From Pedosphaera sp. (lineage in GTDB: Bacteria; Verrucomicrobiota; Verrucomicrobiia; Limisphaerales; UBA9464), in NCBI GenBank assembly GCA_009695205.1, contig SIBK01000001.1, forward strand, positions 48,690-112,689: 64,000 nt of DNA, read 5' to 3'. This document shows, piece after piece, positions 2,255-51,599 of this stretch. The notes below the pieces were generated by a model. The model ran no database searches and was not told the DNA's origin. It saw only the letters and a program-made list of their open reading frames with translations. The position numbers and the translations under genes are program-made. Numbering within the stretch: the stretch's first letter is position 1; every line of letters starts with the position of its first letter.

Positions 2255-2389
2255 CGCCTCAAGAACGGCGAATTGTTTGCCACCACAGTGGGGCCTTCCA
2301 CGACTCTTTCACTCTTCGCCGATATCGGCGGAACGGGTTCGCATGCCCCTCGTTCTCTTTAGCGCTTCTTTGCGACACTTTCCACGCGC

Positions 2390-6101: not shown

Positions 6102-6602
6102 TTGAACGATGATCTTGAAAAGGCTTTCCGAAAGGTGTTCGGTCTGTTCCTCCTCACCCTCTTTGCCTATGTGACGGTCTTCGGTGCGTGCCAGGCCTAT
6201 CGGAGGCGGAACGGCGCCTGGACGATCACCTTTGACCGAGGGTTGGACGGAACCCCGGTGCTCCGGGTCGAACAGCCCAAGCTCCTGGCAGCCGGCGCCG
6301 TGAGTCTATCTTTCCCGGGAGAAGCTCTCAAACGGACAGATTTGCCGATCACAGCGGTTTTCAATTATCCCATCACCAATGCGATGCCCTTCGGTCCCGT
6401 GATCTTTGTGGATACATCCCAGCTACCGGGAGTCGTCACGCTGAATGTGTTCGGGCACGCAGTGGAGATTTTTCCGAGAACTTTGCGTCTCGATTTTCAG
6501 GAAATTCCCTGGAACCCAGGGACCAACATCATCGTCGCCGCTAGTGCGAAGCCGCCAGCGGAAAAATTGAATCAACATGATCAACAGTGGAAGGGCCGGT
6601 AG
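6102..6602 (+). CDS. Hypothetical membrane-anchored protein
   Basis: 166-aa ORF with one N-terminal hydrophobic helix, co-oriented with prmC. Confidence 0.65.
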   Translation: MNDDLEKAFRKVFGLFLLTLFAYVTVFGACQAYRRRNGAWTITFDRGLDGTPVLRVEQPKLLAAGAVSLSFPGEALKRTDLPITAVFNYPITNAMPFGPVIFVDTSQLPGVVTLNVFGHAVEIFPRTLRLDFQEIPWNPGTNIIVAASAKPPAEKLNQHDQQWKGR

Positions 6603-37689: not shown

Positions 37690-39576
37690 TCAATGGGCGC
37701 TCTCGTGCTCTCTGATATACTCTTGCTTTAAGCCAAGTTTCTCCGGGGCATGCAACACCAGCATCTTCATTCGTATATCCAGCGGTATCGAGGATGTCGT
37801 CAGCTTTGATACAACCACCATCAAGGTGATTGCCAAGGGGACCGCCCACAAAGCCGGTTGTTCGCACAAAATCCGCTGCAGCGGATGCGCAGCCCAAAAT
37901 GCTTCGAGCGAATGGGCCTTCATCCACGCGAGCCAGTCGGGCATCGGCTTGCCTGAATATTTCGCCGACATCGTCGTGACGAATGTCGTAAAACTCGTCA
38001 TCGAGATCGCGATCATCGCGAAGAGTCCGCCCGTCAACATTCCGGTCGCGGCACCTTGAACGGTCATTCCTCGCCACCAGATGCTCATAAATAGAAGCGG
38101 AAAATAGCTCGCTGCCGCGATGGCGAAGGCTTGTCCGACCATGAAGTTAATCTCGAAATCTTCCGCCAGACACCCCAACCCGACCGCGACCACACCGACA
38201 GAGATGGCGCACCATTTAAACATCCGCATTCGGTCTGCCGCGGAGGCGCTGGGCCGGAGTATGCGGCCGTACACATCATGGGCCAGCGCGCCCGTCATGC
38301 TTACCAACAAGCCGGAAAAAGTGCTCATGAACGCGGCGAACGCGCCCGCGCATGTAATACCGCTGAGCACCGATCCAAGCACGCCGAAGCGCTCGCGCAA
38401 GATCGTTGGGAGCCGCAACACGATCCCGTCGGTGCCTTTCACTCCCGTCAATCCATTATATAGCTCAGGCATCAGATTGCGGCCCAAAACACCGAACATC
38501 GGTGGGAAAATATAAAAGACTCCAATCAGGATCATCACCCACATCGTGGTCCGCTTCGCAGCCATGCCATCGGGATTGGTATAAAAGCGGACCAGGATGT
38601 GAGGCAATCCGGCGGTGCCGCACACGAGCGCGATGATCAGGGAATAGGTGTAGAGCAGAGCAAGTCTACGGGAGGATTGAGGATCCAGCTTTGCGGCTCT
38701 AGCCGCTTTGGTTGTCAGCGGACCGAACGGCGCGAGCCATGTTGCATCGGGTGGCGCCTTTGCGGGGAGTATTCGAGCGGGTTGAGGTCCTGTTCGGGTG
38801 GAATTCCCGCTCGTTTCAATTTTTTCCTGAAACGGAGGGTTTGCTCCCGGACTTGCGGCTAACTGTTTCGACTGCACGGAAGGATCGGCGACGTTTACTC
38901 CGAGCTGCTTCCCATATCCGCCGTACACCGACAGGAGCACAAATACCGGCACAGCGATGGCAAACATTTTCATCCAGTATTGGAATGCCTGCACCAGCGT
39001 AATGCCCTTCATGCCGCCCAGGGCCACGTTAAAGGTGATCACCGCCCCAACCATGACAACGCCGACCCAATACGGCAGACCCCTCTGGCCAAACCAGGCG
39101 ATGTCTTGAAAAATGTACGCCAAAGTCGTCCCGGCACCCTTCATTTGCGGCATTGTATAGAAAAATCCGATGAACAGGACGAAAACGATCGCGATCTTCC
39201 GGAACATCGGCGAATCGTAGCGGCCTTCGGCGAAATCCGGGATGGTATAGGCCCCAAACCGCCGCAAGGGCCCGGCTATGAACAGCAGGAGAAACAAATA
39301 GCCGCAGGCATAACACACCGGATACCACAGGGCGTCATAGCCGGAAGACATCACCATGCCCGCAACTCCCATGAACGAGGCAGCACTTAGGTATTCGCCG
39401 GAGATGGCGGACGCATTCCAACCGACACTGACGCCGCGGCCCGCGACGAAAAAGTCGGAAGCGGTCCGGGAACGGCTCGCAGCCCAGAACCCCACCACAA
39501 TTGTGGCGAGCACCGTGAAGCTGCTGCAGGCAAGAATCCAGGAATCTACAGCAGCGAGGAGTAGGGAAGTCGGCAT
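37690..39576 (-). CDS. Cation/monocarboxylate symporter (SSS family, ActP-like)
   Basis: DFFVAGR, SGEYLSAASF, YTIPDF, GTAGLPHILVRFYT and AFAIAAAS motifs. Confidence 0.9.
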   Translation of the reverse strand: MPTSLLLAAVDSWILACSSFTVLATIVVGFWAASRSRTASDFFVAGRGVSVGWNASAISGEYLSAASFMGVAGMVMSSGYDALWYPVCYACGYLFLLLFIAGPLRRFGAYTIPDFAEGRYDSPMFRKIAIVFVLFIGFFYTMPQMKGAGTTLAYIFQDIAWFGQRGLPYWVGVVMVGAVITFNVALGGMKGITLVQAFQYWMKMFAIAVPVFVLLSVYGGYGKQLGVNVADPSVQSKQLAASPGANPPFQEKIETSGNSTRTGPQPARILPAKAPPDATWLAPFGPLTTKAARAAKLDPQSSRRLALLYTYSLIIALVCGTAGLPHILVRFYTNPDGMAAKRTTMWVMILIGVFYIFPPMFGVLGRNLMPELYNGLTGVKGTDGIVLRLPTILRERFGVLGSVLSGITCAGAFAAFMSTFSGLLVSMTGALAHDVYGRILRPSASAADRMRMFKWCAISVGVVAVGLGCLAEDFEINFMVGQAFAIAAASYFPLLFMSIWWRGMTVQGAATGMLTGGLFAMIAISMTSFTTFVTTMSAKYSGKPMPDWLAWMKAHSLEAFWAAHPLQRILCEQPALWAVPLAITLMVVVSKLTTSSIPLDIRMKMLVLHAPEKLGLKQEYIREHESAH

Positions 39577-39627
39577 GAGAGAAAAGTGTGGGTTAACTAG
39601 ACGCCTTCGATGAGGTTGTTGCGGTTC

Positions 39628-39945
39628 TCAGCGATTCTGAGACGGAGTCTGCCGACTGTCTGCGGCATCACGGACTTCCGCGTTCTCCAGGTCGATGGAC
39701 CGGCGGATGAAGAAGCCTGAAATGATCCAAACCAGTGGGAAAAAGAGGACGCCAAGCAGGAGCCAGGTCCGTGTGAATCCGCCAATTCGTTGGGCCATGA
39801 ATTCCGGGGCGAAGTAGTTGCAAAGTGGCAATCCCAGCAAGGCAACGAGAAATGCGGCGGCACAGGAAATGGACAGGCGGAGTTGCCGGGACATCAATTG
39901 GCGAAGGAACGTCTCGCTGTGAACACGATCAGGCGGGGTTTGCAC
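39628..39945 (-). CDS. DUF485-family small membrane partner of ActP-type symporters
   Basis: Two TM helices, located immediately upstream of the SSS symporter. Confidence 0.8.
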   Translation of the reverse strand: MQTPPDRVHSETFLRQLMSRQLRLSISCAAAFLVALLGLPLCNYFAPEFMAQRIGGFTRTWLLLGVLFFPLVWIISGFFIRRSIDLENAEVRDAADSRQTPSQNR

Positions 39946-40146
39946 CCGGGTGGTGTATCAGGGAGGGACCGATGTCACAAGCCGGGCGGTTATCTGGAGC
40001 GGCGATTGGGCCTTCCCGATGTTGTGGGTGCTTCCAATCCTCACGGCTCGCGATTTACCGATTTTTCAAGTGTTGCCAACACGTTGGGGGTGCTCGGAGC
40101 AAAGCTACGGAGCAGCGCCAGAGAGCAGCCCCAGGACTCCGGACTC

Positions 40147-40351
40147 CGTGAATCTAAAGGGTCCGTCTCCCGGCATCGCGGCAACTGCACACGTTTCATT
40201 GCCTCGGATTAAACCACAACCTTTTGTTGCATATGCGACAAAAGGTTGCGTGAGCGATTGATTGATTGATTGAACCGTAAAGCGGCGATGGGCACCCTTC
40301 CCTCAACCGATACGGAGAGAGCGGCCGGGAGAGGGGCCTTTCAGTGTCACG
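40147..40351. repeat. REP/MITE-like element with imperfect 28-bp terminal inverted repeats
   Basis: 40147-40174 matches the reverse complement of 40324-40351 at 22/28 positions. The ends resemble the repeats at 57282 and 60131. Confidence 0.65.
40217..40248. repeat. 32-bp palindrome, copy 1
   Basis: CAACCTTTTGTTGCATATGCGACAAAAGGTTG; one mismatch between arms and 30/32 identical to the copy at 50294. Confidence 0.9.
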
Positions 40352-40401
40352 TTTTTTCCGAGTCGACAAAAATTCTCGGACCGATATCAGGAGTTCTGAG
40401 C

Positions 40402-41334
40402 TCAGGGTGGGAGCCAACTCATTTCTCCGGACAGCCAATGCAGAATCTCCGGTATGGCATCGGTCTCCGAGCGCGCCCCTGCCTCCACCAACCGGAATCG
40501 ATCGCTTCGAGGCCGCCATATCGTTGCATTGGATTCTCTCCACAAGGCAACCCCCGGCAAACCCACTGCGGCAGCTAGGTGCGTGATGCCAGAATCGTGC
40601 CCCACAAACGCGTCGGCGCCGGCGAGTCGCTGCGCGACCTCCGGCAGGGGTCGTCCCGTCAAGACCTCGCAGCGTTCCCTGGGTAGTTCCAAAGACAATT
40701 GTTCAAGACGATTCCCCTCGGCCTCCCCTCCAATAAACAGGACCCGGCGACGAGGATCGTCTCCCAGATTCCTCATCAAGTGCTGCCAAAACTCCGCTGA
40801 CCAATTCTTGCTCGCGCTTCCGCTCCCGGGATGGACTGCCACGAGCCGTTGATCATGATGGGATAGGCTCGGAGAAATTCTTGTCGTGATTCGAGGGATA
40901 GGATCCGCCCCAAAAACGGCCACCCGTTCAAGAGGTCGCAGCATTTGATCCGTCGCGTGCTGTGCGGACGTTTCGTCCGGGCGATGAGGTCCCTGGATCA
41001 CCTGTGCCCGCGTCACTCGAGATAAGTTGTCTCGGAAGATTTCGTCCGGATCAAACAAGTAGCTGAAGATTACGTGACATCCGGCGAAATACTCCGACAT
41101 CGCAGGATCCAGGGATCCGTTGCGTGCAAAGAAGCCTGCGAGCGCGCGTGACTCAATCGGGATGACGGCATCAACAACTCCCGCCGCATCTGCGAGGCTG
41201 GCGATGTGCGGGTATCCAAGCACTTCGAGGCGTGTGTCGGGAAACGTCGAGCGAAGCGCAGCGAGAGCTGGCAGAGTTAGAATGAAGTCACCGATTGCGC
41301 CGCCTCGGATTACCAGGATTTTCCCCTGTTTCAT
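40402..41334 (-). CDS. Glycosyltransferase family 9 (heptosyltransferase-like)
   Basis: ILVIRGGAIGDFIL, HPGSG--KNW and GHDSGITHLAAA motifs. Confidence 0.9.
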   Translation of the reverse strand: MKQGKILVIRGGAIGDFILTLPALAALRSTFPDTRLEVLGYPHIASLADAAGVVDAVIPIESRALAGFFARNGSLDPAMSEYFAGCHVIFSYLFDPDEIFRDNLSRVTRAQVIQGPHRPDETSAQHATDQMLRPLERVAVFGADPIPRITTRISPSLSHHDQRLVAVHPGSGSASKNWSAEFWQHLMRNLGDDPRRRVLFIGGEAEGNRLEQLSLELPRERCEVLTGRPLPEVAQRLAGADAFVGHDSGITHLAAAVGLPGVALWRESNATIWRPRSDRFRLVEAGARSETDAIPEILHWLSGEMSWLPP

Positions 41335-41343
41335 TGGTCGAGG

Positions 41344-42102
41344 CTAGATCCGTGTCAACTCGTGCTGGATCACGGCAATGGCGGCGATGGCTGCGGTGTC
41401 AGCGCGCAAGACGAGCTTGCCCAGCGTTATAGGAATAGCGCCCGCGGATCGGAACTGCTGGAGTTCTTCGGGTGAAAAATCGCCCTCAGGACCGATCGCG
41501 ATGGCGATGGTTTTGGGCTGCCGCTGATGCTGTCGAAGAAAATCGGTGAAGGCCGTTCCGATGTGGCGTGCGTTGGATTCCAGGGAACAGAGAAGAACCA
41601 GCTCCGGTCGGCCGTGGGTGGAATTTTTTTGAAGCCATTCCTCGGGCGTCACCGCCATCTCGATTGCCGGTAGCCAGGGCGTTCCGCACTGCTTTGCGGC
41701 TTCAATCGTGGTGGTCCTCCAGCCCGACATTTTGCTGGCTGTGTCGGCGGGGGCTAGCACACGGACGCTTCGGGCGGTGGCAAGGGGAACGATCTGGTGG
41801 GTCCCAAGCTCCGTCGCCTTCTGGAGGATTGTATCCCACGCCTTGGACTTGACGAGCGCTTGTAGGAGCGAGATGGCGGTGGTGGAAGCGGGAAGTTGTT
41901 GCCGGCGGAGGATACGAGCCGAAACGGCGGATTTGGTGACGCGGCTTACGATGCACTGTAAAAGAGCGCCGGCACCGTCCAGAATTTCGATCGATTCGCC
42001 GGGATTGACTCGCAGGACACGTGCGGCGTGCCGGCTTTGGTCGTTCCCGAGCGTGATGGTCTTCTGCTGGCAGGCTTCTGGTGGCAGAAAGAAGCGATGC
42101 AT
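41344..42102 (-). CDS. rsmE: 16S rRNA m3U1498 methyltransferase
   Basis: HAARVLR, QKATELG, IGPEGDF and LG--VLRADTA motifs. Confidence 0.93.
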   Translation of the reverse strand: MHRFFLPPEACQQKTITLGNDQSRHAARVLRVNPGESIEILDGAGALLQCIVSRVTKSAVSARILRRQQLPASTTAISLLQALVKSKAWDTILQKATELGTHQIVPLATARSVRVLAPADTASKMSGWRTTTIEAAKQCGTPWLPAIEMAVTPEEWLQKNSTHGRPELVLLCSLESNARHIGTAFTDFLRQHQRQPKTIAIAIGPEGDFSPEELQQFRSAGAIPITLGKLVLRADTAAIAAIAVIQHELTRI

Positions 42103-42161
42103 GGAGGTGGAGATGACGTAATTTCGGGAAGTCCGATTGGCAACAGATCGGGAGATGGGAA

Positions 42162-43322
42162 TCAGCTGAAGAATTCGCGAGCCCGTTCGAAGAAGGAACG
42201 ATTGTTGGGGTTTACGTCGTGGCCGCAGAGGTGGGCGAACTCTTCGAGTTTCTGGCGTTGAGCCGCATTGAGGTTGGTGGGGATTTCGACAACGATGCGA
42301 ACCATCAGGTCGCCGGTGCCATGGCTTTGCAGATCCTTTGCACCGCGCCCTTTCAGACGGAATACCGTGCCGTTTTGGGTGCCGGCGGGCACCCGGATTT
42401 GAGCACCGCCGGAAAGTGTGGGGACGTTGACTTCTGCGCCGAGAGCGGCCTGGGAAAACGTGACAGGGACTTCACAGACGAGGTTGCTCCCATCGCGTTG
42501 GAATATTTCGTGTTCCCGGACACGGAGCTGGACGTAGAGATCCCCGGAGGGTCCGGCGCGGAAACCGGCGACACCGTTTCCCGTGGAACGGAGGCGCATC
42601 CCGTCGTCCACACCTGCCGGAATCTTCAGCGTGATGGTTGAAGATTGAGTCTTGCGACCCTGTCCACCGCAGGATTTGCAGGGTTTTTCGAGCGTTTGAC
42701 CGGCGCCACTGCAGCGTGGGCAAGTTTGCTGGATACTGAAAATTCCTCGAGACATTACGACCCGGCCGCGGCCGCCACATTGGGTGCACGGGATTCGGCG
42801 GGATCCTTTTTCTGCACCGGTCCCGGAGCATGTGTCGCAGGCACCCGGTTTGGAGATGGTGATTTGCTTTTCCGCGCCGTGAATCGCGTCCTCGAGCGTA
42901 ATCTCGAGGTCATAGCGCAGATCTTCGCCGCGTTGCGGTCCACCGGGGTTGGCTTCCTCGCCGCCGCCAAAAAAACTTTCAAAGATGCTGCCGCCGCCAC
43001 CACCACCGCCGCTGAACACCTCGCGGAAAATATCCATCGGGTCATGGAATCCTCCGCCACGCCCACCGGCACCGTTTCCAGCGCGAGCGCGGGGATCGAA
43101 GGCGGCATGGCCAAACTGATCGTATGCCGCGCGCTTTTGAGGATCGCTAAGGGCTTCGTAGGCCTGGCTGAGTTCCTTAAACTTGTCCTCAGCCGACTTA
43201 TCACCCGGGTTTTTATCCGGATGAAATTTTACCGCAAGCTTGCGGTAAGCCTTTTTGATTTCCTCGTCGGATGCCGAGCGGGCAACGCCGAGAATTTCGT
43301 AATAATCACGTTTACTAGCCAT
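42162..43322 (-). CDS. dnaJ: Chaperone DnaJ
   Basis: [13 protein letters not shown] motif, G/F-rich region and four CxxCxGxG repeats. Start ATG at 43322. Confidence 0.97.
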
Positions 43323-43326
43323 CGAG

Positions 43327-43917
43327 TCAGTCTTGGGTTGAGCCGGATGGGCATGCCGAGGAAGCGGGGGATTTGGCCACGACGACGCTGGCGGGGCGGA
43401 GCAGACGTTCGCGCAGGCGGAAGCCTTTGCGGAGCTCCTGAACGACCTGTCCTTCGGGTGCGCTCGTGGTCTCGAGTTGCGAGACGGCTTCATGCAACGC
43501 GGGGTCGAAGGGTTGCCCAAGGACGGAGATTTCTTCGAGGCCGAGCTCCGAGAACGCGGCGCGGAGTTGGCCGTGAATCATCAAGACGCCGGCCTTGAGT
43601 ACGTCGATATTTGTGTTCGGTTGGTTTGCGGCGGCCATGGCCTTTTCAAAACTGTCGAGAATCGGCAACAGGCGGACGATAACACCTTCGGCGGCTGCCT
43701 TGCGGGTTTCGTCGCGTTCGCGAGCGGCTCTTTTTTTGAAATTATCGAAATCGGCGGTTGTCCGGAGCAACCGTTCAAAGAGCTCGGCTGCCTTGGCGCC
43801 CTCAGCCTTCAATGCTTGGATCTGTTCGGGGGCCAAGGTTTCGGGTGTGAAGTCTACGAGCGTCGGGGAGGTTTCCCCGGGCTGAACGGTGTTGGGTTCT
43901 GTCGGTTCCTGGCTCAT
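43327..43917 (-). CDS. grpE: Nucleotide exchange factor GrpE
   Basis: [18 protein letters not shown] and [15 protein letters not shown] motifs. Confidence 0.96.
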
Positions 43918-43982
43918 TTCCTCTTAAGTGGTCGGCAAGATAGAAGGGCGAACGGGGCAGAGCAAGTGGGTGAGCCGAGTCG

Positions 43983-45038
43983 TCAAATCAGTCCTGCGGT
44001 TTCGGGGTAACCGCAGACGATATTCATGCTTTGGACAGCCTGCCCGCTGGCACCCTTGATAATGTTGTCTTCGGCGCAGATGACGATGAGCCGGCCGGTG
44101 CGGAGATCGAGCCGCCAGGCGATTTCCACGACATTGGTGCCGACAACATTCTTGGTATCGGGGAGGGCCTTGCCTTCGAGGATGCGGACGAAAGGTTCCG
44201 TTGCGTAGGCGGCATAGTAGCAGCTCGTAATCATTTCTGCGAGAGCCGCCGCCTCGGCCTTGGAGCTGAAGTGGTGAGCTGGAGCTAAATAGAGGGTGGT
44301 GAGGATGCCGCGGTTCACGGGGATGAGGTGAGGCGTGAACTGGACGGTGACCGGGGTGTCGGCGGCGAGGCTCAATTGTTCCTCGATCTCCGAAAGATGA
44401 CGATGCTTTGGGATGCCGTAGGGGCGGACACTCTCGTTGCATTCGCAGAAGAGATAGTCCAGCTCCGCCTTGCGGCCTGCTCCACTGACGCCGCTAAGCG
44501 AGTCGGCAATAATGCCGGCCGACTTGATGAGTTGGGCTTTGAGGAGTGGAACTGTCGGGATGAGAATGCTAGTGGGGTAGCAGCCTGGCGAGGCGATGAG
44601 CGAGGCAGACTTGATCTGAGATCGGTAAAGTTCAGGGAGGCCGTAAACAGATTTTTCGAGAAGCGACGGGGCGGGGTGAAGATGGCCGTAAAACTCGGCA
44701 TAGATTTCAGGGCTCTTGAGACGGAAATCGGCACTGAGATCGATCACCGTGCAACCAGAGTTCAAAAGAGGCACGGCGAACTCGGCGGCGACTCCGTGTG
44801 GGAGGGCAAGAAAAACAAAATCAGCCTGAGTCGCGAGAACGCCGGCGTTGGGTTCCGAAAATCGGAGAACCTTGGATCGCGGGTGGCTAGCAAACCTAGG
44901 AAAGACTTGCGCAACGGTCAGTCCGGCATTTTGTCGCGAGGTGACGGCGGCGAGATGAACGAGGGGATGGTTGAGCAGCAGGCGGACGAGTTCTTCGCCT
45001 GAATAACCAGACGCACCGACGATTGCGACGTTTTTCAT
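43983..45038 (-). CDS. argC: N-acetyl-gamma-glutamyl-phosphate reductase
   Basis: VGASGYSG, DLSADFR, PGCYPT, SGVSGAG and DNIIKGASGQAVQ motifs. Confidence 0.96.
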   Translation of the reverse strand: MKNVAIVGASGYSGEELVRLLLNHPLVHLAAVTSRQNAGLTVAQVFPRFASHPRSKVLRFSEPNAGVLATQADFVFLALPHGVAAEFAVPLLNSGCTVIDLSADFRLKSPEIYAEFYGHLHPAPSLLEKSVYGLPELYRSQIKSASLIASPGCYPTSILIPTVPLLKAQLIKSAGIIADSLSGVSGAGRKAELDYLFCECNESVRPYGIPKHRHLSEIEEQLSLAADTPVTVQFTPHLIPVNRGILTTLYLAPAHHFSSKAEAAALAEMITSCYYAAYATEPFVRILEGKALPDTKNVVGTNVVEIAWRLDLRTGRLIVICAEDNIIKGASGQAVQSMNIVCGYPETAGLI

Positions 45039-45110
45039 GGAATGAGGAATTGACCAGGCGCTCGGCGTCCGGAGTGTCTGAGAGACTGGAAGGCGAATTG
45101 AGTGGAGTGC

Positions 45111-45150
45111 AAAACAAAAACCCCGCCGTCGGCAAGGCCGGGCGGGGTTT
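45111..45150 (-). terminator. Rho-independent terminator after rplM-rpsI
   Basis: The minus strand reads AAACCCCGCCCGGCCTTGCCGACGGCGGGGTTTTTGTTTT, a GC stem followed by a U tract. Confidence 0.8.
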
Positions 45151-45166
45151 GAAGGAGATTGGGCGA

Positions 45167-45565
45167 TTAGCGTTTCGAGAATTGGAAACGAGCACGCGCA
45201 CCCGGTTGGCCGTACTTCTTACGTTCCTTCATACGAGGGTCGCGGGTGAGGAGACCCTCGGCTTTGAGGAGAGGACGGTAGGCGAGATCGGCCTTGAGTA
45301 ATGCGCGAGCAATACCGTGGCGGGTTGCGCCGGCCTGGCCGGTGGGACCTCCGCCCTGGACGTTTACGCGCACGTCAAATTTGCCGCTGGTCGATGTCGC
45401 CGTAAACGGCTGCAGCACTGCCATCCGCTGCTGTTCCAGCGGAAAGTAGACTTCGAACGGGCGGTTATTAACGGTGACTTTTCCTGCGCCGGAGGCGAGG
45501 CGAACTCGGGCGACGGATGTCTTGCGGCGGCCGGTGCCGAGAAATTCAGTGACTTTGGTGACCAT
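45167..45565 (-). CDS. rpsI: 30S ribosomal protein S9
   Basis: [22 protein letters not shown] and ERKKYG...FQFSKR motifs. Confidence 0.98.
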
Positions 45566-45584
45566 GATTTGAGTTTGGAAAAAT

Positions 45585-46019
45585 TCAGCCTGCGTACTCG
45601 AGCTTGGCCGGCATTTGAGCGGCATGCGGGTGATCGGAGCCTGCGTAAACCTTCAGTTTCGTCAACAGTCGGTCTGCGAGGCGGTTCTTCGGCAGCATGC
45701 CCTTGACAGCATGGAGCACGAGACGTTCCGGGTGGGCCGCTCGGACCTGAGCAACCGTGCGGTACTTTTCTCCCCCTTTCCATCCAGAATACGACATGTA
45801 CTCCTTGGCGGTTTCTTTCTTGCCCGAGAGCAAAACCTGGGCGGCGTTAATCACGACCACGAAGTCGCCGGCATCAAGGTGCCGCGTGAAGGTCGGTTTG
45901 TTTTTGCCGCGCAGAACGTCGGCCACCTGGACGGCCAATCGGCCCAGGACGGCGCCATTGGCATCAATGATTTGCCACGCGCGTCGCTGCATGTCCGGCT
46001 TCGGAAGATAAGTCTTCAT
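45585..46019 (-). CDS. rplM: 50S ribosomal protein L13
   Basis: [31 protein letters not shown] and KLKVYAG--HPH motifs. Confidence 0.98.
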
Positions 46020-46071
46020 CAAAAGTTCCAATCAAAAGGAGCGAAGGAAGTATCAATCGCCCGGGGACTCG

Positions 46072-47340
46072 TCAACTGTGTTTTCCTGTTGTTTCATCCA
46101 AGCAGGTCACCCCAGGGAGTGGAGTGCCTTCCAGAAACTCGAGACTAGCTCCACCGCCAGTGCTCGCAAAACTTACCTTGTCGCCCAGTCCAGCCTTGTT
46201 CACGGCCTTCACGGAATCGCCACCACCGATGATGGATTTGGCGCCGTGAGCCTGGGTCGCTTCCACAGCCGCCCGAGCCACCGCAGTGGTTCCAGCAGCG
46301 AACCGGGCATCCTCAAACATCCCCATCGGCCCGTTCCAAAGAATCGTTTTTGCGCAGGCGAGGACGGCGGCGTACTGCTTCGCTGTTTCCGGCCCGATGT
46401 CGAACCCTTCGGCATCTTCCGGAATGTCACCACTAACTACCCGCGGATTCTGGAGGTCATAGACCGGTTTGCCCTTCTTGTTCAATTTTCCGGTGTCAAC
46501 CGGCGTGGCAATCACGGTATCGGAAGGGAGCAGGAACTTTACGCCCCGTTTCCGAGCCTTGTCTTCGGCGGCGAGCGCCGTGCCGATATGGTCTTTTTCA
46601 ATGAGGGATTTTCCTGTTCTGCCTCCGTGGGCCAGCTTGAACGTGTACGCCATTGCGCCGCCAATCAGGACGGTATCGGCCTTGTCGAGGAGGCGGTCGA
46701 TCACTTTGATTTTGTCAGAAACTTTCGCGCCGCCGAGGATGACGACAAACGGACGAACCGGATGTTCCAGTTCATCACCCAGGAACTTCAGTTCCCGCAG
46801 CATGAGAAGTCCCGCCGCACAGCGGCCACTCCACGCTTTGACGATGCGGGCGACGCCGCAGGTTGAGGCGTGAGCTCGGTGCGCAGCACCAAATGCGTCA
46901 TTGACGTACACATCCGCAAGGCGCGCGAGGCGGGCAGAAAAAACCGGGTCATTCGCTTCTTCTTCAGGGTGGAACCGCACATTTTCCAGCAGGAGTATCT
47001 CGCCGTCTTTCAGGCCGTTTGCGGCAGCTTCAGCCTTTTCACCGACGCAATCGTCAACGAATTGCACCGGGCGCCCAAACATTTCCCCCAGTTTTTCGGC
47101 AACCGGCCGCAAACTCATGGTTGGTTCCCGTCGGCCCTCGGGACGCCCCAGGTGGGCTGCAAGCACCAGCCGCGCTCCTTTGCTGGCAAGCAGTTCAAGG
47201 GTTGGCAGGGTTTCCCTGATCCGGGTGGCGTCGTTGATGACCATACAACCGTCTTTTTCCTCCATCGGGACATTGTAGTCCACGCGCAGGAAGACCCGCT
47301 TACCGGAGACGTTCAGGTCGGCGACCGAGAGCTTGGCCAT
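46072..47340 (-). CDS. pgk: Phosphoglycerate kinase
   Basis: RVDYNVP, HLGRP, LLENVRF, DAFGAAHRAHAS, GGAKVSDK and STGGGASLE motifs. Confidence 0.98.
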   Translation of the reverse strand: MAKLSVADLNVSGKRVFLRVDYNVPMEEKDGCMVINDATRIRETLPTLELLASKGARLVLAAHLGRPEGRREPTMSLRPVAEKLGEMFGRPVQFVDDCVGEKAEAAANGLKDGEILLLENVRFHPEEEANDPVFSARLARLADVYVNDAFGAAHRAHASTCGVARIVKAWSGRCAAGLLMLRELKFLGDELEHPVRPFVVILGGAKVSDKIKVIDRLLDKADTVLIGGAMAYTFKLAHGGRTGKSLIEKDHIGTALAAEDKARKRGVKFLLPSDTVIATPVDTGKLNKKGKPVYDLQNPRVVSGDIPEDAEGFDIGPETAKQYAAVLACAKTILWNGPMGMFEDARFAAGTTAVARAAVEATQAHGAKSIIGGGDSVKAVNKAGLGDKVSFASTGGGASLEFLEGTPLPGVTCLDETTGKHS

Positions 47341-47502
47341 AAAAAGAAAGGTTGTCGAAAACAGGAATTCAAAAATACGCGACGATCGAGCAGCGATCCG
47401 TCATGGTAAATCGTAACGCCGATCTTCGCACGCGGAACCCCGAATCCGCAGGAATCGGGCCGCCAATTATAGCGAGCGGCTGTTGGGTGTCCAATCGGTT
47501 TT

Positions 47503-48609
47503 TTGAACTGGGCAATGTCCGTTAAGCTCGCACCATTGTCAGACATGTCCCGCCCCAGTGCGTCCGCAATACCCATTCAACCGCCCTCAGCCGCTTTCCG
47601 CGGCAAATTGGCTGGAATGGCTGCGCTCGTTTTTCTATCCGCGTCGTTGCTTTTGGCCCGTGAAAGCCGGGTCCGGCCTCCAACGCTACGCCAATTCATG
47701 GAGAAACGGGGATACACGGTCGTCAAGGTGGACCGTACCCCAGAGCAACATCTCATGGTGAACGGGCGGATCGACGGCAAGCGGGCGCGGTTTGTCGTTG
47801 ATACAGGATTCACTTTTAATGCGGTGGAAACCAACTGGGCCAAGCGTCTGCCGCGGGTGTCATCGCAGGAGGAAGCCGCGCTGACACCGCCGGGAAATCC
47901 GCCGGGATCGTTTCAATTCGCACGCCTCAACCATTTTGAACTGGATGGCCGGCCGTATCCGGCGGAGGTCGCCATGGTGACCCGGTGGTGGCAGCGGGGT
48001 CTATTTCTTCCGTGGATGCCGGTTTTTAGGATGGGGGGCGCGCTCGATTGTGATGCGGTGCTGGGCGTCCCCTTTCTGCAACACCACAGGGCGGTCATCG
48101 ACTATGGCCAACCGCCGGGACTGTTTGTCCGCGGCACGGCGCCTTCCTCGGAGGCGACGCGGGAAATTGAAGAATCGTTCCGTTTGAGTGGGTTTGCACC
48201 CGTAGAACCGATCTACCTGCCGCCAGGGAAATGGGTGGTATCCGCCCGAGTGAACAACCGGCAGGTGGGGTTATTGGTCGATACAGGCGGATACCGCACT
48301 GTCCTTGATCAGAGATTGGCCGCTGAGCTCGGCGTGAAGATGAGGCCGGGTGTGGATTTGATGCACGGTGTGGAAGGACGGCAGTCCACCATGACGGACG
48401 CCAGAATCCAGCGGCTCGAGTTGGGCGAGTCGGTCTTTACTAACCTCACGGTATCCGTGGCGGATCTTGCACCGTGGAATTTAAGCCCAACCCAGAAGAG
48501 TCTGCTTCTTCCCCGCGGGATTCTCGGCTCCGACCTCCTTACGGAGACCCGAGCGATTCTTGACTGCGAAACGCCGCGAATTTGGTTTTTGAAATCCGCA
48601 GTCCGGTGA
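47503..48609 (+). CDS. Secreted two-domain retropepsin-like aspartyl protease
   Basis: Two DTG motifs (VVDTGF, LVDTGG), each with a downstream xLG motif, plus a signal-like segment. Start uncertain. Confidence 0.8.
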   Translation: MNWAMSVKLAPLSDMSRPSASAIPIQPPSAAFRGKLAGMAALVFLSASLLLARESRVRPPTLRQFMEKRGYTVVKVDRTPEQHLMVNGRIDGKRARFVVDTGFTFNAVETNWAKRLPRVSSQEEAALTPPGNPPGSFQFARLNHFELDGRPYPAEVAMVTRWWQRGLFLPWMPVFRMGGALDCDAVLGVPFLQHHRAVIDYGQPPGLFVRGTAPSSEATREIEESFRLSGFAPVEPIYLPPGKWVVSARVNNRQVGLLVDTGGYRTVLDQRLAAELGVKMRPGVDLMHGVEGRQSTMTDARIQRLELGESVFTNLTVSVADLAPWNLSPTQKSLLLPRGILGSDLLTETRAILDCETPRIWFLKSAVR

Positions 48610-48643
48610 TTATCGAAGAAGGCCATTAGCCTGCATGCCCATA

Positions 48644-49333
48644 CTATAAAGGTTTGAGTCGGGTATACGGCTCATCCTCCCAGTTGCTACCTGGCCAGAA
48701 AAAACTGTCCACGGCCCCATCATACCGAAGGGCGAGGTCACGGATGTTGGTCTTCTTCCACAGACCGGGTTGCAGGCGGGCCGTCCACCCGCTGTAGAGA
48801 TGTCGATGCCACGGGCACGCGGCGACGATGAAACGCCCTTGCCAGCGGTTGATTTGATCCTTCAGCCACAACTTTCCCTCGGCGGGCACTTGCTGAGAGG
48901 CACCCATATGATAGGCGTAGCTCGTGGTGAAATCACCGGGCGCCCCGTAGTACTCCCAGCCCAAGTCGATGGGTATCCGTCCATTAGTACGGTCGGATTT
49001 GCAAATAAAGACGTTGGTGGTGGCGAGATATTTGGAGCTCTCCAGGTAGTTCGTGCCACCGCCGGAATAGCCGCTCCGAAGGCCTGGGTTTACCAGGAAA
49101 AGAGGAGGACGATCCTGATTGTCCTCCTGGTAAAGCCGGATGCCGATCCCGATCTGCTTCAAGTTGTTTACGCAATGCATCCTGCGGGCTAGCTCTGTCG
49201 AGCGGCCGAGCGTGGGCAGAAGCATTGACGCGAGAATCGCGATAATTGCGATCACGACCAGCAGTTCGATGAGGGTGAAGCCCGCGGAAGATATTGCCGC
49301 AAGGGGGCGGCGACGGCGGAAACCGGAGTTCAT
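48644..49333 (-). CDS. Prepilin-type N-terminal cleavage/methylation domain protein
   Basis: [23 protein letters not shown]...CVNNLKQIG. Confidence 0.9.
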
Positions 49334-49431
49334 TGTTCGGATCGAATATCCGCCTGGCCCGGAAGTCAATGTTCGAGTGGTGCCAGGACGCGTCCATAAA
49401 GCCTCTCAAAGATTCATGCGTCGTCGTTTAA

Positions 49432-49463
49432 CCAACTTTTGTTGCACCTGCGATGAAAGGTTG
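49432..49463. repeat. 32-bp palindrome, copy 2 (degenerate)
   Basis: CCAACTTTTGTTGCACCTGCGATGAAAGGTTG; 26/32 identical to copy 3 and followed by the same TTGyGG flank. Confidence 0.8.
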
Positions 49464-49471
49464 TTGTGGAG

Positions 49472-50257
49472 CTAGGTGAGGTGGAACGTGTGCAGTTGTC
49501 GGCTGGCATCGCGCAGCACTGCCACTCGCTGTTGCCATGCCTGTTCACCCAAGTACCCGGGGGGGAGTATCGGGTCGGGAAGCATTGGATCGTACGTGAC
49601 AGCCGCCAACCAAGCCTTACGTTCCGCCGCCGCCCACCGCAGCAACGCCTTTGCCGCCGCATCGCTTCGAAGAACGCCAACCGGTCGCTCGAAAAGGGTT
49701 TTTAGATGTTGAGAATAGAGTCGATTGATGCGCTCGAAGTCCCATGCGCCGGCGACGATTTCCGCGTCTGATTCGCCGGCACCCGGACGGGCCTCTAGCA
49801 GAATGAGCGATTTTACATTGATCTTTCCGCCGCCGAGAACCTGCCGTTCCTCGGTCAGCGGGTCGGGTTGAATCCACACGCTGTTTTGGAGACACCCGAA
49901 GCTCTTTTGGCGCAAATAGCGTCGCAGGCGTTCACGCTCGGTGTTTTTTCCCGTGGGCACGTCGAAGAGCACTAGCCTCCACTGGCCGTCCCAAGGTCGT
50001 GCCCAGCGTTCCTGGGGGTCTCGCCCACCCAAGACCCGCAAACGCCCTTGCGCGGATAGCCGATAGAGCCGGTCGTCCTGAGAGCCGGTGCCCCGTTCCA
50101 GGAGTTGTTGCCGCTCCAGCAGGGCGACCTGACGCATGAGTCCGTTGCTGTAAGCCCAGCTTTCGTAGGAATCGGTCAGGTTTCGAAACGTTGGCTGGAT
50201 CAGCAGTTCGGCGGACCAGAGCAGCAGATTTAAGAATTCCTCGGTCTTGGGCTGCAT
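49472..50257 (-). CDS. PaaX-family protein (wHTH-like, Cas2-like middle and PaaX C-terminal domains)
   Basis: YRLS--G, WDGQWRLVLFDVP, LR---FGCLQNSVWI, AWDF and DPMLP--ILP--YLG motifs. Start ATG at 50257 (MQPKTEEFL). Confidence 0.85.
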   Translation of the reverse strand: MQPKTEEFLNLLLWSAELLIQPTFRNLTDSYESWAYSNGLMRQVALLERQQLLERGTGSQDDRLYRLSAQGRLRVLGGRDPQERWARPWDGQWRLVLFDVPTGKNTERERLRRYLRQKSFGCLQNSVWIQPDPLTEERQVLGGGKINVKSLILLEARPGAGESDAEIVAGAWDFERINRLYSQHLKTLFERPVGVLRSDAAAKALLRWAAAERKAWLAAVTYDPMLPDPILPPGYLGEQAWQQRVAVLRDASRQLHTFHLT

Positions 50258-50293
50258 TGGAAAAATTTGGAACAATAATGATAAAAAGCAATA

Positions 50294-50325
50294 CAACCTT
50301 TTGTTGCATCTGCAACAAAAGGTTG
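50294..50325. repeat. 32-bp palindrome, copy 3
   Basis: CAACCTTTTGTTGCA-TC-TGCAACAAAAGGTTG with perfect 15-bp arms. Confidence 0.92.
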
Positions 50326-50498
50326 TTGCGGGTCTTCTTGAAGTCGGATGAGCAGGATTCGTCGCGCGCCTTGGCCACTGAAGGGAGTGGAGGCAGGCGT
50401 CTCCTTCACGATGCGCCAAGCCTGCTGCTTCACGAATAGACTCCGTATTCAATACGACCGAGGAGATCCTCGACTTCACGGACGCTGAGTTCCGGAAA

Positions 50499-50573
50499 TG
50501 GTGCGCGGTACAGGGTTCGAACCTGTGACCCCTACAGTGTCAATGTAGTGCTCTACCACTGAGCTAACCGCGC
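50499..50573 (-). tRNA. tRNA-Val(GAC)
   Basis: GCGCGGTTAGCTCAGTGGTAGAGCACTACATTGACACTGTAGGGGTCACAGGTTCGAACCCTGTACCGCGCACCA folds as a cloverleaf with anticodon GAC and an encoded CCA. Confidence 0.97.
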
Positions 50574-50642
50574 GTCTGCCAAGAGCGGCCCGGAATCTAC
50601 GGGTCGACCCGGGTGAGGCAAGGTCTTTTTCCAAGGTCCGCA

Positions 50643-51599
50643 CTAAAGCTGCAACCCAGACTGCATTTTTTCGGCTAGGCGTTTGGTGAATTCCTCGGCC
50701 GCATTGTACCCGGAAATCTTGAGCTTGGTCTGGAATGCTGCCACTTCAATCAGACGGGCCAGATCGCGACCCGGCCGGACAGGAATCGTCATCCGAGGCA
50801 CCTGAATCCCCAACAATTCTTCGTACACCTGATCCAGTCCCAAGCGGTCTACCTCCTTGGCATCGTCCCAATTTTTCAGTTCCACCAGCACGTCGACACG
50901 CTTTTCGCGGCGGACAGCACCGACACCGAACGTTGCGGCAACATTAATAATCCCGATACCGCGCACCTCCATTAGATTGCGGCCCTCTTCCTTCGCAGTG
51001 CCGACCAACTCCCGCCCCTCGCGGAGTTGCAGCAGCACGACGTCGTCAGCGACCAGACTGTAGCCGCGTTCGACCAGGCCCAACACAGCCTCGCTCTTGC
51101 CGATGCCGCTCTCACCCTGGACGATCACCCCCACGCCCTGGATGTCCACCATGCAGCCATGGACCTGTCCGCTTGGGGCAAACATGTCTTCCAGCGCAAG
51201 CGTCGCTAGATTGATGAATTTCATGGTGATCCATTCGCTTTCAAACACGGGAACGCCTGTCGCATTGGCGGCGTTGATCAAACTTTTCTCCGGCTTGATT
51301 CCGCGACAAAAAACGACGCAAGGAATCCGGTGAGCGAACAGTTCACGGTACCGGGTTTCGCGAGTTTGGCGGTCGAGGGACCCTAAGTAAGCGGTCTCGA
51401 CATTGCCAACGACCTGAACACGGCGCGGGGCGAAGTATTGTTTGAAACCGGCTAGGACGAGGCCGGGGCGATTGACGGTTGGTTCGCGGATTGGGCGTTG
51501 GAGACCGGACTCGCCGGCGAGTTGCCGCATCTTGAGGGCTTCGGAGTGTTTGGCGAAGAATTGTCGGACCGTGATCGGCGGCTGTTTCGGGGAATTCAT
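50643..51599 (-). CDS. hprK: HPr kinase/phosphorylase
   Basis: NRPGL, HG--V, GESGIGKSE, LVADD, MEVRGIGII and PVRPGR motifs. Confidence 0.96.
   Translation of the reverse strand: MNSPKQPPITVRQFFAKHSEALKMRQLAGESGLQRPIREPTVNRPGLVLAGFKQYFAPRRVQVVGNVETAYLGSLDRQTRETRYRELFAHRIPCVVFCRGIKPEKSLINAANATGVPVFESEWITMKFINLATLALEDMFAPSGQVHGCMVDIQGVGVIVQGESGIGKSEAVLGLVERGYSLVADDVVLLQLREGRELVGTAKEEGRNLMEVRGIGIINVAATFGVGAVRREKRVDVLVELKNWDDAKEVDRLGLDQVYEELLGIQVPRMTIPVRPGRDLARLIEVAAFQTKLKISGYNAAEEFTKRLAEKMQSGLQL

Follow-up and report, generated by a model that had tools for sequence, protein, structure and literature searches.

A palindrome-bracketed PaaX-family gene of Pedosphaera sp. looks like a self-contained, relocating unit of protein and binding site

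A PaaX-family gene bracketed by two palindromes in a genome of Pedosphaera sp. looks like a new self-contained, relocating unit of a protein and its binding site, and not like a phenylacetate regulator. The window analysed here is a stretch of 64,000 nucleotides, in which positions 49432-50325 belong to a large family of ~0.9-kb single-gene cassettes of the Verrucomicrobiota. Each cassette consists of a PaaX-family gene placed between two copies of a 32–46-bp palindrome that is private to the gene lineage. The recurrence of this layout with private palindromes across Verrucomicrobia is what points to a self-contained unit instead of a regulator of phenylacetate degradation. We read the gene product as a homodimer that binds the palindrome and regulates its own gene, encoded on a discrete 0.9-kb cassette that relocates and leaves solo derivatives in the manner of REP/RAYT, and assign this reading a probability of about 0.6. 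A full-text literature search that covered few papers from subscription journals found no description of a palindrome-bracketed PaaX-like cassette family, and no paper containing both "PaaX" and "Cas2".

The bracketed gene and its surroundings

The PaaX-family gene occupies positions 49472..50257 on the minus strand and encodes 261 aa, with its TAG stop at 49472-49474. Upstream of it lies a perfect palindrome of 16+2+16 nucleotides (50293..50326, 34 bp), whose 32-bp core at 50294-50325 reads CAACCTTTTGTTGCA-TC-TGCAACAAAAGGTTG; 36 nt separate this core from the ATG (50255-50257), and the centre of the palindrome is 54 nt before the ATG. A degenerate copy with five mismatches (49432..49463) lies 8 nt past the stop codon. 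On the plus strand the two copies are followed by TTGCGG or TTGTGG, and a repeat search aligns the two over 52 nt in direct orientation with 75% identity. A third copy is found at 40217-40248, about 10 kb off, and all three lie upstream of minus-strand genes. The arrangement that a first-pass annotation had described by inspection of the window, including the shared right flank and the direct-repeat relation, is therefore present in the sequence. Matches to the palindrome at three or fewer mismatches were seen in 0 of 100 shuffles of the window, which excludes a chance origin of the copies.

The outer boundaries of the cassette are marked by the upstream palindrome on the 5' side and by the downstream palindrome on the 3' side. 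When folded as single-stranded DNA, the upstream copy reaches −16.2 kcal/mol (z −7.9), compared to −3.7 kcal/mol (z −0.8) for the downstream copy. The latter has lost its hairpin potential, and the second bracket is accordingly a decayed relic in this window. The upstream palindrome is presumed to be both the binding site of the protein and its auto-operator, and the AT-rich 36-nt spacer on the minus strand (50258..50292), which starts with TATTGC, is presumed to hold the core promoter and a short leader of the gene. The motif (C/T)AT(T/G)G(C/A) directly follows the palindrome in most loci. A sigma-70 scan of positions 49250-50620 returned no promoter-like site and no consensus match in the spacer, so that we can only infer a promoter there. 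On the minus strand, the same scan flagged a terminator-like signal made up of the upstream palindrome and ATTGCTTTTT; the T-run is not general among loci.

The minus strand also carries a tRNA-Val(GAC) gene (50499-50573), separated from the upstream palindrome by 173 bp, close to the distance of about 170 bp noted earlier. An Rfam search of positions 39000-51000 of the window (E ≤ 1) returned this tRNA alone. The stretch occurs in four DNA sequencing runs from two studies, with no RNA run listed. The Logan contigs of these four runs are short and end at the palindromes: one of them (X2, 49256-49782) spans the DUF1559 gene, the decayed palindrome and the 3' end of the PaaX-like gene, while the upstream palindrome is overlapped from either side and not bridged. 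No joint omitting the cassette is listed among these contigs.

Recurrence and discreteness of the cassette

Among 41 relatives, the PaaX-like gene is present in nine, the 32-mer in seven and both in six. A generalised core, TTTGTNNCANNTGNNACAAA, occurs in 8 of 9 gene-bearing relatives compared with 3 of 32 others (p = 1.4e-5 by Fisher's exact test, a value that overstates the significance because related genomes are not independent), and a control with the reversed pattern gave zero everywhere. One relative (G034) carries palindromes and no detected PaaX-like gene. Across the class Verrucomicrobiae the gene was found in 34 of 301 genomes and 28 of 156 genera, with at most eight matches per genome, and at 50% identity and E ≤ 1e-30 there are 347 protein clusters.

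The flanks of the gene were surveyed at 80 loci from named Verrucomicrobiota MAGs, a palindrome being counted as strong at a score of at least 12. A strong palindrome was found upstream in 50 of 78 testable loci (28 had none) and just after the stop codon in 43 of 76 loci (33 had none), with both sides occupied in 31 of 74; random control windows in the same loci yielded one strong palindrome in 400. The upstream palindrome is centred 52–54 nt from the ATG in 40 of the 50 loci. Among 20 loci of more distant homologues, a flanking palindrome is present at 17 and palindromes on both sides at 11, with a different sequence each time. An intact homologue in G002 (contig C19) has no palindrome with arms of at least 9 nt.

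Palindrome sequences differ from lineage to lineage and match within a locus. Upstream and downstream half-sites diverge by 6.6% within a locus compared to 32% between loci (36 loci), and 0 of 5000 permutations reached the observed degree of cognate pairing. One genome (G028) contains two palindrome families, each around its own paralogue. The expectation that homologues would be bracketed by palindromes co-varying with the protein was largely borne out, and solo palindromes occur almost only in gene-bearing genomes.

DNA homology between cassettes halts at the outer palindrome edges. In comparisons of 2073 locus pairs, the alignments begin 70–80 nt before the ATG in 530 pairs and stop 30–49 nt after the stop codon in 440. 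Where pairs are at least 85% identical and have at least 400 nt of flank, the similarity is confined to the cassette in 49 of 73. Cassettes 88–93% identical are found in different contexts; housekeeping DNA within the same genus is only 80–83% identical. The 145 neighbouring ORFs fall into 113 clusters, including parE|parC, enolase, thrS, uvrB, metH and rsgA, that is, unrelated housekeeping genes with no paa linkage. The parE–parC gap measures ~94 bp in the genome studied here and 1180 bp with a cassette in L058, the two genomes being distant from each other, and the cassette of the window is placed exactly at a break of synteny with two congeners. No target-site duplication was seen. Neither was a clean empty site found: the cassette flanks in G015 and G028 have no usable orthologues, and in the congeners G001 and G002 DUF485 is preceded by an intergenic region that is about as long but unrelated in sequence, and so does not represent an empty site. 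The PaaX-like protein has no relatives in IMG/VR viral contigs or PLSDB plasmids and no match in PHROGs.

Dispersed palindromes and the question of a regulon

The genome under study (4.95 Mb) contains a single PaaX-like gene and 22 palindrome sites on 16 contigs. The solo palindrome in the window (40217..40248, one mismatch) lies ~270 bp upstream of DUF485-actP and belongs to a mosaic repeat of ~290 bp ("family A"), whose copies are 85–93% identical and show few independent changes in the palindrome. It is adjoined by what is left of a PaaX-like gene's 3' end (40158..40216, plus strand), which reads ...RVRLPASRQLHTFHCL followed by an 8-nt spacer; its stop codon is mutated, the intact cassette reading ...VAVLRDASRQLHTFHLT and stop. 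When the last 70 nt of the cassette without the palindrome were searched by blastn-short (matches of at least 14 nt and at least 94%), six of six non-self matches adjoined solo palindromes, and alignment revealed such a remnant at nine of 20 solo sites, so that six to nine of these sites retain it. Many solo sites of this genome retain the last 15–60 nt of the gene; the inner 5' flank of nine cassettes is matched by no solo. A blastx comparison of the solo flanks with 81 proteins returned nothing at E ≤ 0.01 because the 3'-end remnants are too short. A conserved small ORF (MERVQLPRC) found 17 nt from many solo palindromes was dropped as a gene, since it runs antisense to the 3'-end remnant and varies in length between 25 and 93 aa.

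In the complete genome G279 the genome's own palindrome occurs seven times, as two copies flanking the gene and five dispersed solos; its congener G325 has no palindrome of this type. These five solos are bare palindromes with no gene remnant, so that the 3'-remnant pattern holds only for the genome of the window and weakly for G022. One paralogue (g) of G124 has no solos at all. Within genomes the 15-nt palindrome arms are near-invariant and the 2-nt centre is free to vary. Symmetric double changes number 0 against 13 single changes in the genome of the window and 6 against 3.3 expected in G022; they are not enriched, and these counts give no sign of hairpin selection. The 22 copies form no arrays and show no regular spacing. 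At two sites in this genome GTAG was noticed by eye directly after the palindrome.

The first-pass annotation had offered two readings of the palindrome, as part of a RAYT/REP-like unit and as an operator of the gene itself, of a prepilin-like gene and of DUF485-actP. As an operator of its own promoter the palindrome is plausible in view of the constant spacing to the ATG and of E. coli PaaX, which is reported (PMC9493321) to repress its own Px promoter and to use a 39-bp inverted repeat operator, TGATTC(N27)GAATCA. The proposed control of the other genes is not conserved among genomes. In four other gene-bearing genomes the 1.5 kb around actP are free of palindromes, the palindrome site at uvrB is not conserved in four to five such genomes, and in 42 of 71 loci the cassette is followed downstream by a convergent gene. 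Sites in the genome of the window mostly lie 50–300 bp upstream of at least one gene; two of the 22 lie between convergent genes (Peptidase_S9/ffh on contig C55 and Hydrolase_4/PQQ_2 on C111), and the adjoining genes have no common function. Of 58 cassette-neighbour ORFs with a best match in this genome, three lie within 3 kb of a palindrome, where about two are expected by a rough estimate. Of the 20 palindrome sites in G022, six have flanks orthologous in the genome of the window, and the palindrome is present at none of these six places. A conserved regulon was rejected on the negative actP and uvrB sites and the overlap of three neighbour ORFs against the two or so expected. The window contains no phenylacetate genes, as had been noted, and PaaA_PaaC (PF05138) has no match in the whole 93%-complete genome.

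The protein, competing explanations and significance

The 261-aa protein matches Pfam PaaX_M at 2.3e-18 (66.5 bits against a gathering score of 24) and PaaX_C at 1.1e-3 (19.8 bits, below the cut-off of 22). It starts with a winged helix, continues with a Cas2-like domain in the middle and ends in a helical PaaX_C-like domain with the conserved motif DPLLP..LLP..Y.G..W, and its profile aligns through DPLLP..LLP to the solved structures 8a39 (2e-9 in a PDB profile search) and 3kfw. An AlphaFold2 model (pLDDT 79) matches 8a39 (E 1.6e-8, TM 0.54) and 3kfw (E 9.6e-8) in Foldseek, and the whole chain as modelled has the fold of the PaaX superfamily (8a39, 3kfw, 3l09); Cas2 chains appear at ranks 7–20, over the middle domain. 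Scores fall below the curated NCBIfam cut-offs both for the PaaX equivalog (TIGR02277, 58 bits against 264.55) and for cas2 (TIGR01573, 18.6 against 24.5), and the PADLOC Cas2 models give only weak matches (1.6e-4 to 1.6e-3). Beyond this weak Cas2 similarity, the protein gave no match to any family of transposases, recombinases or nucleases. Strand beta1 ends in D99, an Asp of the Cas2 type that all 81 of 81 aligned sequences share and that 8a39 and 3kfw lack in the stretch aligned with them. A homodimer model scored 0.46 (best of three controls 0.00), a pass of a mark that is reached by 20 of 30 solved one-chain pairs and one of 23 solved single chains and that may here reflect memory, as PaaX-family dimers are already solved. 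Contacts agree between runs by at least 97%, pLDDT is at least 77, and the predicted interface comprises residues 93-99, 123-127 and 150-162. The highest mutual information links residues 103, 106 and 109 with half-site positions 4-5, a lead only, as such values are confounded by phylogeny.

These results lead us to propose that the PaaX-like protein, as modelled, dimerises through its Cas2-like domain and that the dimer would bind its own palindrome with one half-site per subunit, as the co-variation and the analogy with the E. coli PaaX operator suggest. Bound to the upstream copy, centred ~54 nt before the ATG, the protein would repress its own promoter. The two palindromes may represent the ends of a relocating unit because homology halts there and the neighbours are unrelated housekeeping genes, and the solo palindromes would be derivatives of the cassette, to which the protein probably still binds. 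The DNA could be moved by the protein itself, by recombination between palindromes or by host enzymes. A palindrome-bound protein with solo derivatives would amount to REP/RAYT-like behaviour built around a transcription-factor-like protein. The RAYT/REP-like reading put forward earlier is largely upheld by the cognate co-varying palindromes, the solos and the ends of homology, and falls short in that no target-site duplication was seen and no transposase family detected.

It is also possible, though we think it rather unlikely, that the gene is an ordinary chromosomal, autoregulated PaaX-family repressor with lineage-specific operators and regulon, perhaps with an acyl-CoA-type ligand, and that the repeats and variable neighbours arose by operator turnover and genome rearrangement with no mobility involved. 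The PaaX-family fold and profile, the conserved effector-like C-terminal domain, the constant distance between palindrome and ATG, the location of most sites upstream of genes, the sparing of the palindrome in family A copies and the precedent of E. coli PaaX, reported to bind TGATTC(N27)GAATCA and to repress Px (PMC9493321), all fit this account. Two considerations weigh against mobility in general: the PaaX_C-like C-terminus is more to be expected in a regulator that responds to a ligand than in a protein of mobility, and homology would also end at the palindromes if unconstrained intergenic DNA diverged around a conserved operator. The account is less easily reconciled with a second palindrome after the stop codon, with the convergent neighbours and the sites between convergent genes, with the lack of conservation at actP, at uvrB and at the six G022 orthologues, with adjoining genes of no common function, with solos that bear remnants of the gene's own 3' end, with 88–93% identical cassettes in different contexts, and with private palindromes for each examined paralogue, some genomes having several matches (at most eight).

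The opposite extreme, that the PaaX/Cas2-like protein moves the DNA itself and so defines a new class of bacterial transposable elements, appears improbable to us. On this account the two winged helices of the dimer would grip the outer palindrome arms, the inner bases would be read by helix alpha1 (residues 103-116), which is rich in Arg and belongs to the Cas2-like domain, and the paired D99 residues at the dimer interface would be placed above the free dinucleotide in the centre and cleave it, leading to excision, reinsertion and one-ended copies that leave a 3' end with its palindrome as solos. We consider it very unlikely that the palindromes are classical REPs moved by an IS200-like Y1 transposase with the PaaX-like gene as a bystander. 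On contig C92 (L011) two palindromes do flank a 339-aa Y1_Tnp gene and also adjoin a 647-aa gene with Y1_Tnp and WD40, but this is the one place of nine in the genome with Y1_Tnp near a palindrome, the PaaX-like gene is the one consistently bracketed in the examined loci, and the palindrome type follows its lineage. An integrase-type islet at the 3' end of tRNA-Val, in keeping with the earlier remark that such ends are common integration sites, is hardly credible and has been largely refuted: synteny with G001 and G002 does stop 3 nt past the tRNA 3' end, and the DNA that follows the tRNA there is on contig C103 here, but the 1.19-kb segment specific to this genome contains no integrase, and a tRNA gene is present at 0 of 89 other PaaX-like loci (1.5–2.5 kb on each side). 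The tRNA-Val adjacency is incidental.

The preferred reading, a palindrome-binding protein on a relocating cassette, can be set beside several known systems. To our knowledge, the known links between dispersed palindromes and a cognate flanked gene all involve HUH tyrosine transposases (REP/RAYT). In the pdif modules of Acinetobacter plasmids, genes lie between XerC/D sites, and dif sites consist of two 11-bp arms around a central region of 6–8 nt (6-nt Xer spacer). The cassette resembles these as a small gene module between two palindromic protein-binding sites in varied contexts; unlike them, it has invariant 15-nt arms around a free 2-nt centre, which sets it apart from Xer-type dif sites, encodes its cognate protein inside and is chromosomal, with no PLSDB match. 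As in IS elements and MITEs, it is a discrete unit with identical terminal repeats, shorter derivatives that keep one end and an embedding in mosaic repeat families, but it has no recognisable transposase or observed target-site duplication, and each of its ends is a palindrome. The likeness to Cas2 lies in the central domain, which matches structurally and weakly by sequence, and in the beta1 Asp within the modelled interface, whereas the repeats form no CRISPR array and the sequence scores stay below the curated cut-offs. REP/RAYT systems, as described in published abstracts and in PMC3733652, have a usually single-copy protein gene flanked by a palindromic repeat that is scattered extragenically. 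The cassette shares with them the gene flanked by a dispersed extragenic repeat, the repeat type that follows the protein lineage, the possibility of several protein/repeat families per genome and the patchiness among relatives. It differs in having a PaaX-family winged-helix/Cas2-like protein and not an HUH/Y1 transposase, in longer and nearly perfect palindromes in 0–40 copies compared to hundreds, and in that the gene itself appears to shift position; REP repeats carry a conserved GTAG or CGTC tag at one end, of which the GTAG seen by eye at two sites is the only counterpart noted here. With E. coli PaaX the cassette protein shares fold and domain order (8a39), a long inverted-repeat operator and autorepression, both reported for E. 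coli PaaX (PMC9493321) and presumed here, and dimerisation through the central domain, here modelled. It differs by a genome with no paa genes, by the low equivalog score, by a half-site conserved at all 15 positions and not only at six, by the second site after the stop and the solo sites, and by the retained D99.

The cassette gene is present in roughly a ninth of the sampled Verrucomicrobiae genomes. The family would be one in which a protein of a transcription-factor family with a Cas2-like core fills a RAYT-type role. If the protein only binds, the family would clearly exemplify how a regulator gene travels with its operators, and would be a natural library of dozens of orthogonal pairs of protein and 36-bp operator. 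If the protein also cuts, it would represent a mobile element of a new kind and, outside CRISPR, a free-living relative of the association between Cas2 and repeats. Were the protein indeed the mobility enzyme, a nuclease of the Cas2 fold would be at work on palindromic repeats that have no part in CRISPR, which would bear on the origin of the association of Cas2 with repeats.

The palindrome-bracketed gene of the window

The first-pass annotation described, at 49432..50573, a PaaX-like gene bracketed by two palindromes beside a tRNA gene, and the sequence agrees with that description. The ORF (49472-50257, minus strand, 261 aa) is preceded by a perfect palindrome at 50294-50325 (34 bp if positions 50293 and 50326 are counted), 36 nt upstream of the ATG, and is followed 8 nt past the stop by a copy with five mismatches at 49432-49463. 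A third copy with one mismatch lies at 40217-40248, upstream of DUF485-actP, and tRNA-Val(GAC) occupies 50499-50573. No palindrome matches occurred in 100 shuffles of the window. As single-stranded DNA, the upstream palindrome folds with −16.2 kcal/mol (z −7.9); the downstream copy has lost the hairpin (−3.7 kcal/mol, z −0.8). We refer to the ~0.9-kb unit of gene and flanking palindromes as the cassette, and to palindromes away from any PaaX-like gene as solos.

Two congeners (G001 and G002) match the source genome (G000; the window is contig C68) on one contig as far as position 49308 and on a second contig from the tRNA 3' end, and the intervening 1.19 kb is specific to G000 in this comparison. 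At this synteny break (49309-50495, with L031, L032, L036 and L037), both congeners carry after tRNA-Val sequence found in G000 at the end of contig C103. Four DNA sequencing runs from two freshwater studies contain the window stretch, and no RNA runs containing it are listed; a read-derived contig spans the 3' junction of the cassette, and the upstream palindrome is spanned by none. Independent of the palindrome is a ~118-bp repeat at 40014-40131 with no Rfam match and more than 25 genome copies (73–85% identity), which probably breaks the assembly, as several copies are located at contig ends (C3, C9, C94, C129).

Cognate palindromes and discrete units across Verrucomicrobiota

An alignment-based scan with one genome per species yielded 80 loci, nearly all from Verrucomicrobiota MAGs and 51–85% identical. 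Of 78 testable loci, 50 had a strong palindrome (score ≥ 12) no more than 150 nt upstream. Downstream, 43 of 76 had one in the first 100 nt past the stop, and 31 of 74 had both, compared with 1 of 400 random windows of the same loci. In 40 of the 50 upstream cases, the palindrome centre and the ATG were 52–54 nt apart. Palindrome sequences vary widely among loci (for example ...TTTGTCGCATATGCGACAAA..., ...ATGTCACACGTGTGACAT... and ...TTGCATCAGGTGATGCAA...), whereas the two copies of one locus agree, with a 6.6% difference within loci compared to 32% between them (36 loci; 0 of 5000 permutations). The expectation that homologues would be flanked by their own cognate palindrome, co-varying with the protein, is largely borne out.

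Among 20 more distant loci from a class-wide sample, 17 had a flanking palindrome and 11 had both, and paralogues there each carried their own 36–46-bp sequence. In that sample the gene occurred in 34 of 301 genomes and 28 of 156 genera, with at most eight matches per genome. The complete genome G279 contains a private palindrome seven times, twice flanking the gene and five times as dispersed solos, and its congener G325 has no copies; for one paralogue in G124 the palindrome is limited to its two flanking copies. Some PaaX-like copies (L060, L118, L029 in G027:C27, G090:C20, G290:C126) have one or two in-frame stops, mostly TGA, and are likely decaying cassettes. For ten loci (L041, L045, L054, L055, L059, L089, L090, L093, L114, L120) the MAG label is Bifidobacteriaceae, Haliangiales, Methylomirabilota or Nitrospirota, which reflects either mislabelled or contaminated bins or transfer beyond Verrucomicrobiota.

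DNA alignments between loci begin 70–80 nt before the ATG in 530 of 2073 pairs and end 30–49 nt after the stop in 440 of 2073; these points are the outer palindrome edges. Where identity was at least 85% and enough flank was available, 49 of 73 pairs were confined to the cassette, as were 13 of 26 at ≥ 88% and 4 of 8 at ≥ 90%; by comparison, housekeeping DNA near the window is 80–83% identical within the genus. Clustering of the 145 ORFs nearest to the cassettes gave 113 clusters of ordinary genes, including enolase, thrS, uvrB, metH, rsgA, bipA and glycosidases. At four loci the cassette sits between parE and parC, which lie 1180 bp apart with a cassette (L058) compared to ~94 bp in G000.

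Co-occurrence was compared among 41 genomes of the same order, nine of which encode the PaaX-like protein. The 32-mer (≤ 3 mismatches) occurs in seven of the 41 (G000 21 copies, G022 38, G011 6, G028 4, G015 3, G027 3, G034 2), and a reversed-pattern control gave none. A generalised core, TTTGTNNCANNTGNNACAAA, is found in 8 of 9 gene-bearing genomes versus 3 of 32 others (Fisher p = 1.4e-5, or 4.7e-5 without G000; both values are optimistic because related genomes are not independent). In G028 each of two paralogues is flanked by its own palindrome family, the C66 homologue having a perfect variant 41 bp before the gene and again 13 bp beyond the stop; the G022:C484 homologue has two copies on each side. 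The intact G002 homologue (C19, 57% identity) has no detectable palindrome. Elsewhere in that congener, C228:221-471 holds a cassette relic, a 46-aa fragment of the G000-type C-terminus (74% identity) with a perfect TTTGTTGCATATGCAACAAA core behind it. In G004, which lacks the gene, C34:28008-28027 carries TTTGTTCCACGTGGAACAAA, one symmetric position apart from cassette palindromes (TGTTGCA-NN-TGCAACA); it resembles a parS site.

Solo palindromes

The single PaaX-like gene of G000 (tblastn; 4.95 Mb, 142 contigs, 93% complete) is accompanied by 22 palindrome copies on 16 contigs, 20 of them with at most two mismatches over 30 specified positions. Arm positions 2–16 from the axis are nearly invariant, and the central two bases vary freely (TA, CC/GG, TC/GA, CA and others). 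Neighbouring genes share no theme (Ser/Thr kinase, ABC transporter, DUF1559 proteins, sulfatase, cytochrome c, proline racemase, uvrB, purB, CutA, a cupin, others), and at two sites the flanking genes converge. Many of the palindromes form part of larger mosaic repeats: family A (~290 bp, seven copies, 85–93% identity), family B (four copies) and family C (two copies).

Several sites have further features. The palindrome-adjacent sulfatase gene of L009 (C90) is split into two ORFs (2156-3076 and 3137-3574) and may be a frameshift or pseudogene. In L011 (C92:28611-39090), palindromes at 4001-4032 and 6449-6480, whose flanks are oppositely oriented, surround a 339-aa gene that partially matches Y1_Tnp and abut a 647-aa gene (Y1_Tnp plus WD40-like repeats) adjoining uvrB. 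An AEP-TOTE primase and helicase gene (L006, C44, 887-2611) lies 1–2 kb from a family B palindrome and directly adjoins cassettes, as upstream neighbour, in two other MAGs (L095, L097), which may point to a common setting in a mobile or conflict island. A flank motif like TTTGGCCATTTCTGGCGG, 12–15 nt from the palindrome, is common to solo sites of two genera (L125-L144 in G022; C55 and C111 in G000).

In G000, solos read ...RVRLPASRQLHTFHCL, a stop, 8 nt and then the palindrome, and the cassette reads ...VAVLRDASRQLHTFHLT, a stop, 8 nt and then the palindrome. When the last 70 nt of the cassette, palindrome excluded, were compared with G000, all six non-self matches (≥ 14 nt, ≥ 94%) were located beside solos. 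By alignment, 9 of 20 solos retain a 3'-end remnant, five more have the shorter motif TGCCTCnGA, and GAGGC lies within 35 nt at 13 of 22 sites; no solos matched the 5' inner flank of nine cassettes. A small ORF beside the palindromes (MERVQLPRC) was rejected as the antisense of the PaaX-like C-terminus. Only in G000 is derivation of solos from the cassette 3' end shown, because the evidence in G022, whose solos keep ~17 nt resembling their own cassette end, is weaker and the five solos of G279 consist of the palindrome alone.

A regulator-like protein and a proposed relocating unit

The protein matches Pfam PaaX_M (2.3e-18) and weakly PaaX_C, and in a PDB profile search E. coli PaaX (8a39, 2e-9) and Rv0674 (3kfw, 1e-9). 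It falls below the PaaX equivalog (58 vs 264.55 bits) and cas2 (18.6 vs 24.5 bits) cut-offs. Along its entire length the AlphaFold2 model (pLDDT 79) matches 8a39 (E 1.6e-8), 3kfw and 3l09, and its middle domain matches Cas2 chains. All 81 sequences keep the Cas2-type Asp that closes beta1 (VLFDV, D99), whereas the aligned stretch is LLLSE in 8a39 and IVTSIG in 3kfw. A homodimer model (interface residues 93-99, 123-127 and 150-162) scored 0.46 versus 0.00 for the best of three controls, a mark reached by 20 of 30 same-chain-pair proteins versus 1 of 23 single-chain proteins among solved structures; runs agreed in at least 97% of contacts with pLDDT of at least 77. Since PaaX-family dimers are already solved, this may reflect likeness to them and not independent evidence. 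For half-site positions 4-5, which are inner and variable, mutual information peaks at residues 103, 106 and 109 (helix alpha1, Cas2-like domain); phylogeny confounds this signal, which is therefore no more than a lead.

A review reports the E. coli PaaX operator TGATTC(N27)GAATCA and autorepression of Px (PMC9493321), so a palindromic site of 32–40 bp and self-control are traits of the family. Given this precedent, the co-variation and the constant spacing, specific binding of the protein to its palindrome is very likely, and autoregulation of the gene is likely. That the protein is just an ordinary regulator with palindromic operators is a minority possibility. In 42 of 71 loci the neighbour on the downstream side is convergent, so the second palindrome is not generally an operator for the following gene. 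The suggested control of DUF485-actP is not conserved: around actP in G011, G015, G022 and G028, neither a palindrome nor a core-like motif occurs within ~1.5 kb. None was found near uvrB in five gene-bearing genomes, nor at the G000 places orthologous to the 6 of 20 G022 sites whose flanks could be matched.

We favour, with a probability of about 0.6, a cassette that relocates, with solos derived from it. In favour of this reading are homology that stops sharply at its boundaries, near-identical cassettes whose neighbours are unrelated, a distribution both patchy and multicopy, paralogues with private palindromes, and solos that adjoin gene-end remnants. Against mobility count the lack of a recognisable mobility enzyme in the cassette, the conserved effector-like C-terminal domain, and the absence of any insertion footprint or empty site among the loci; part of the pattern could also come from divergence around a conserved operator. 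The self-contained REP/RAYT-like unit, one of two readings in the first-pass annotation, holds in large part. Dependence on a RAYT, the Y1 transposase cognate to REP palindromes, is very improbable, and an islet at the tRNA even more so: of 89 other PaaX-like loci, 0 have a tRNA gene in the 1.5–2.5 kb on each side. Searches among viral and plasmid sequences gave no relatives.

A full-text literature search, with most subscription journals outside its scope, returned no description of palindrome-bracketed PaaX-like genes and nothing naming both 'PaaX' and 'Cas2'. The verrucomicrobial REPs known so far carry GTAG tags and are linked to RAYTs (PMC3733652). A relocating PaaX-like cassette with solos derived from it would be analogous to REP/RAYT systems.
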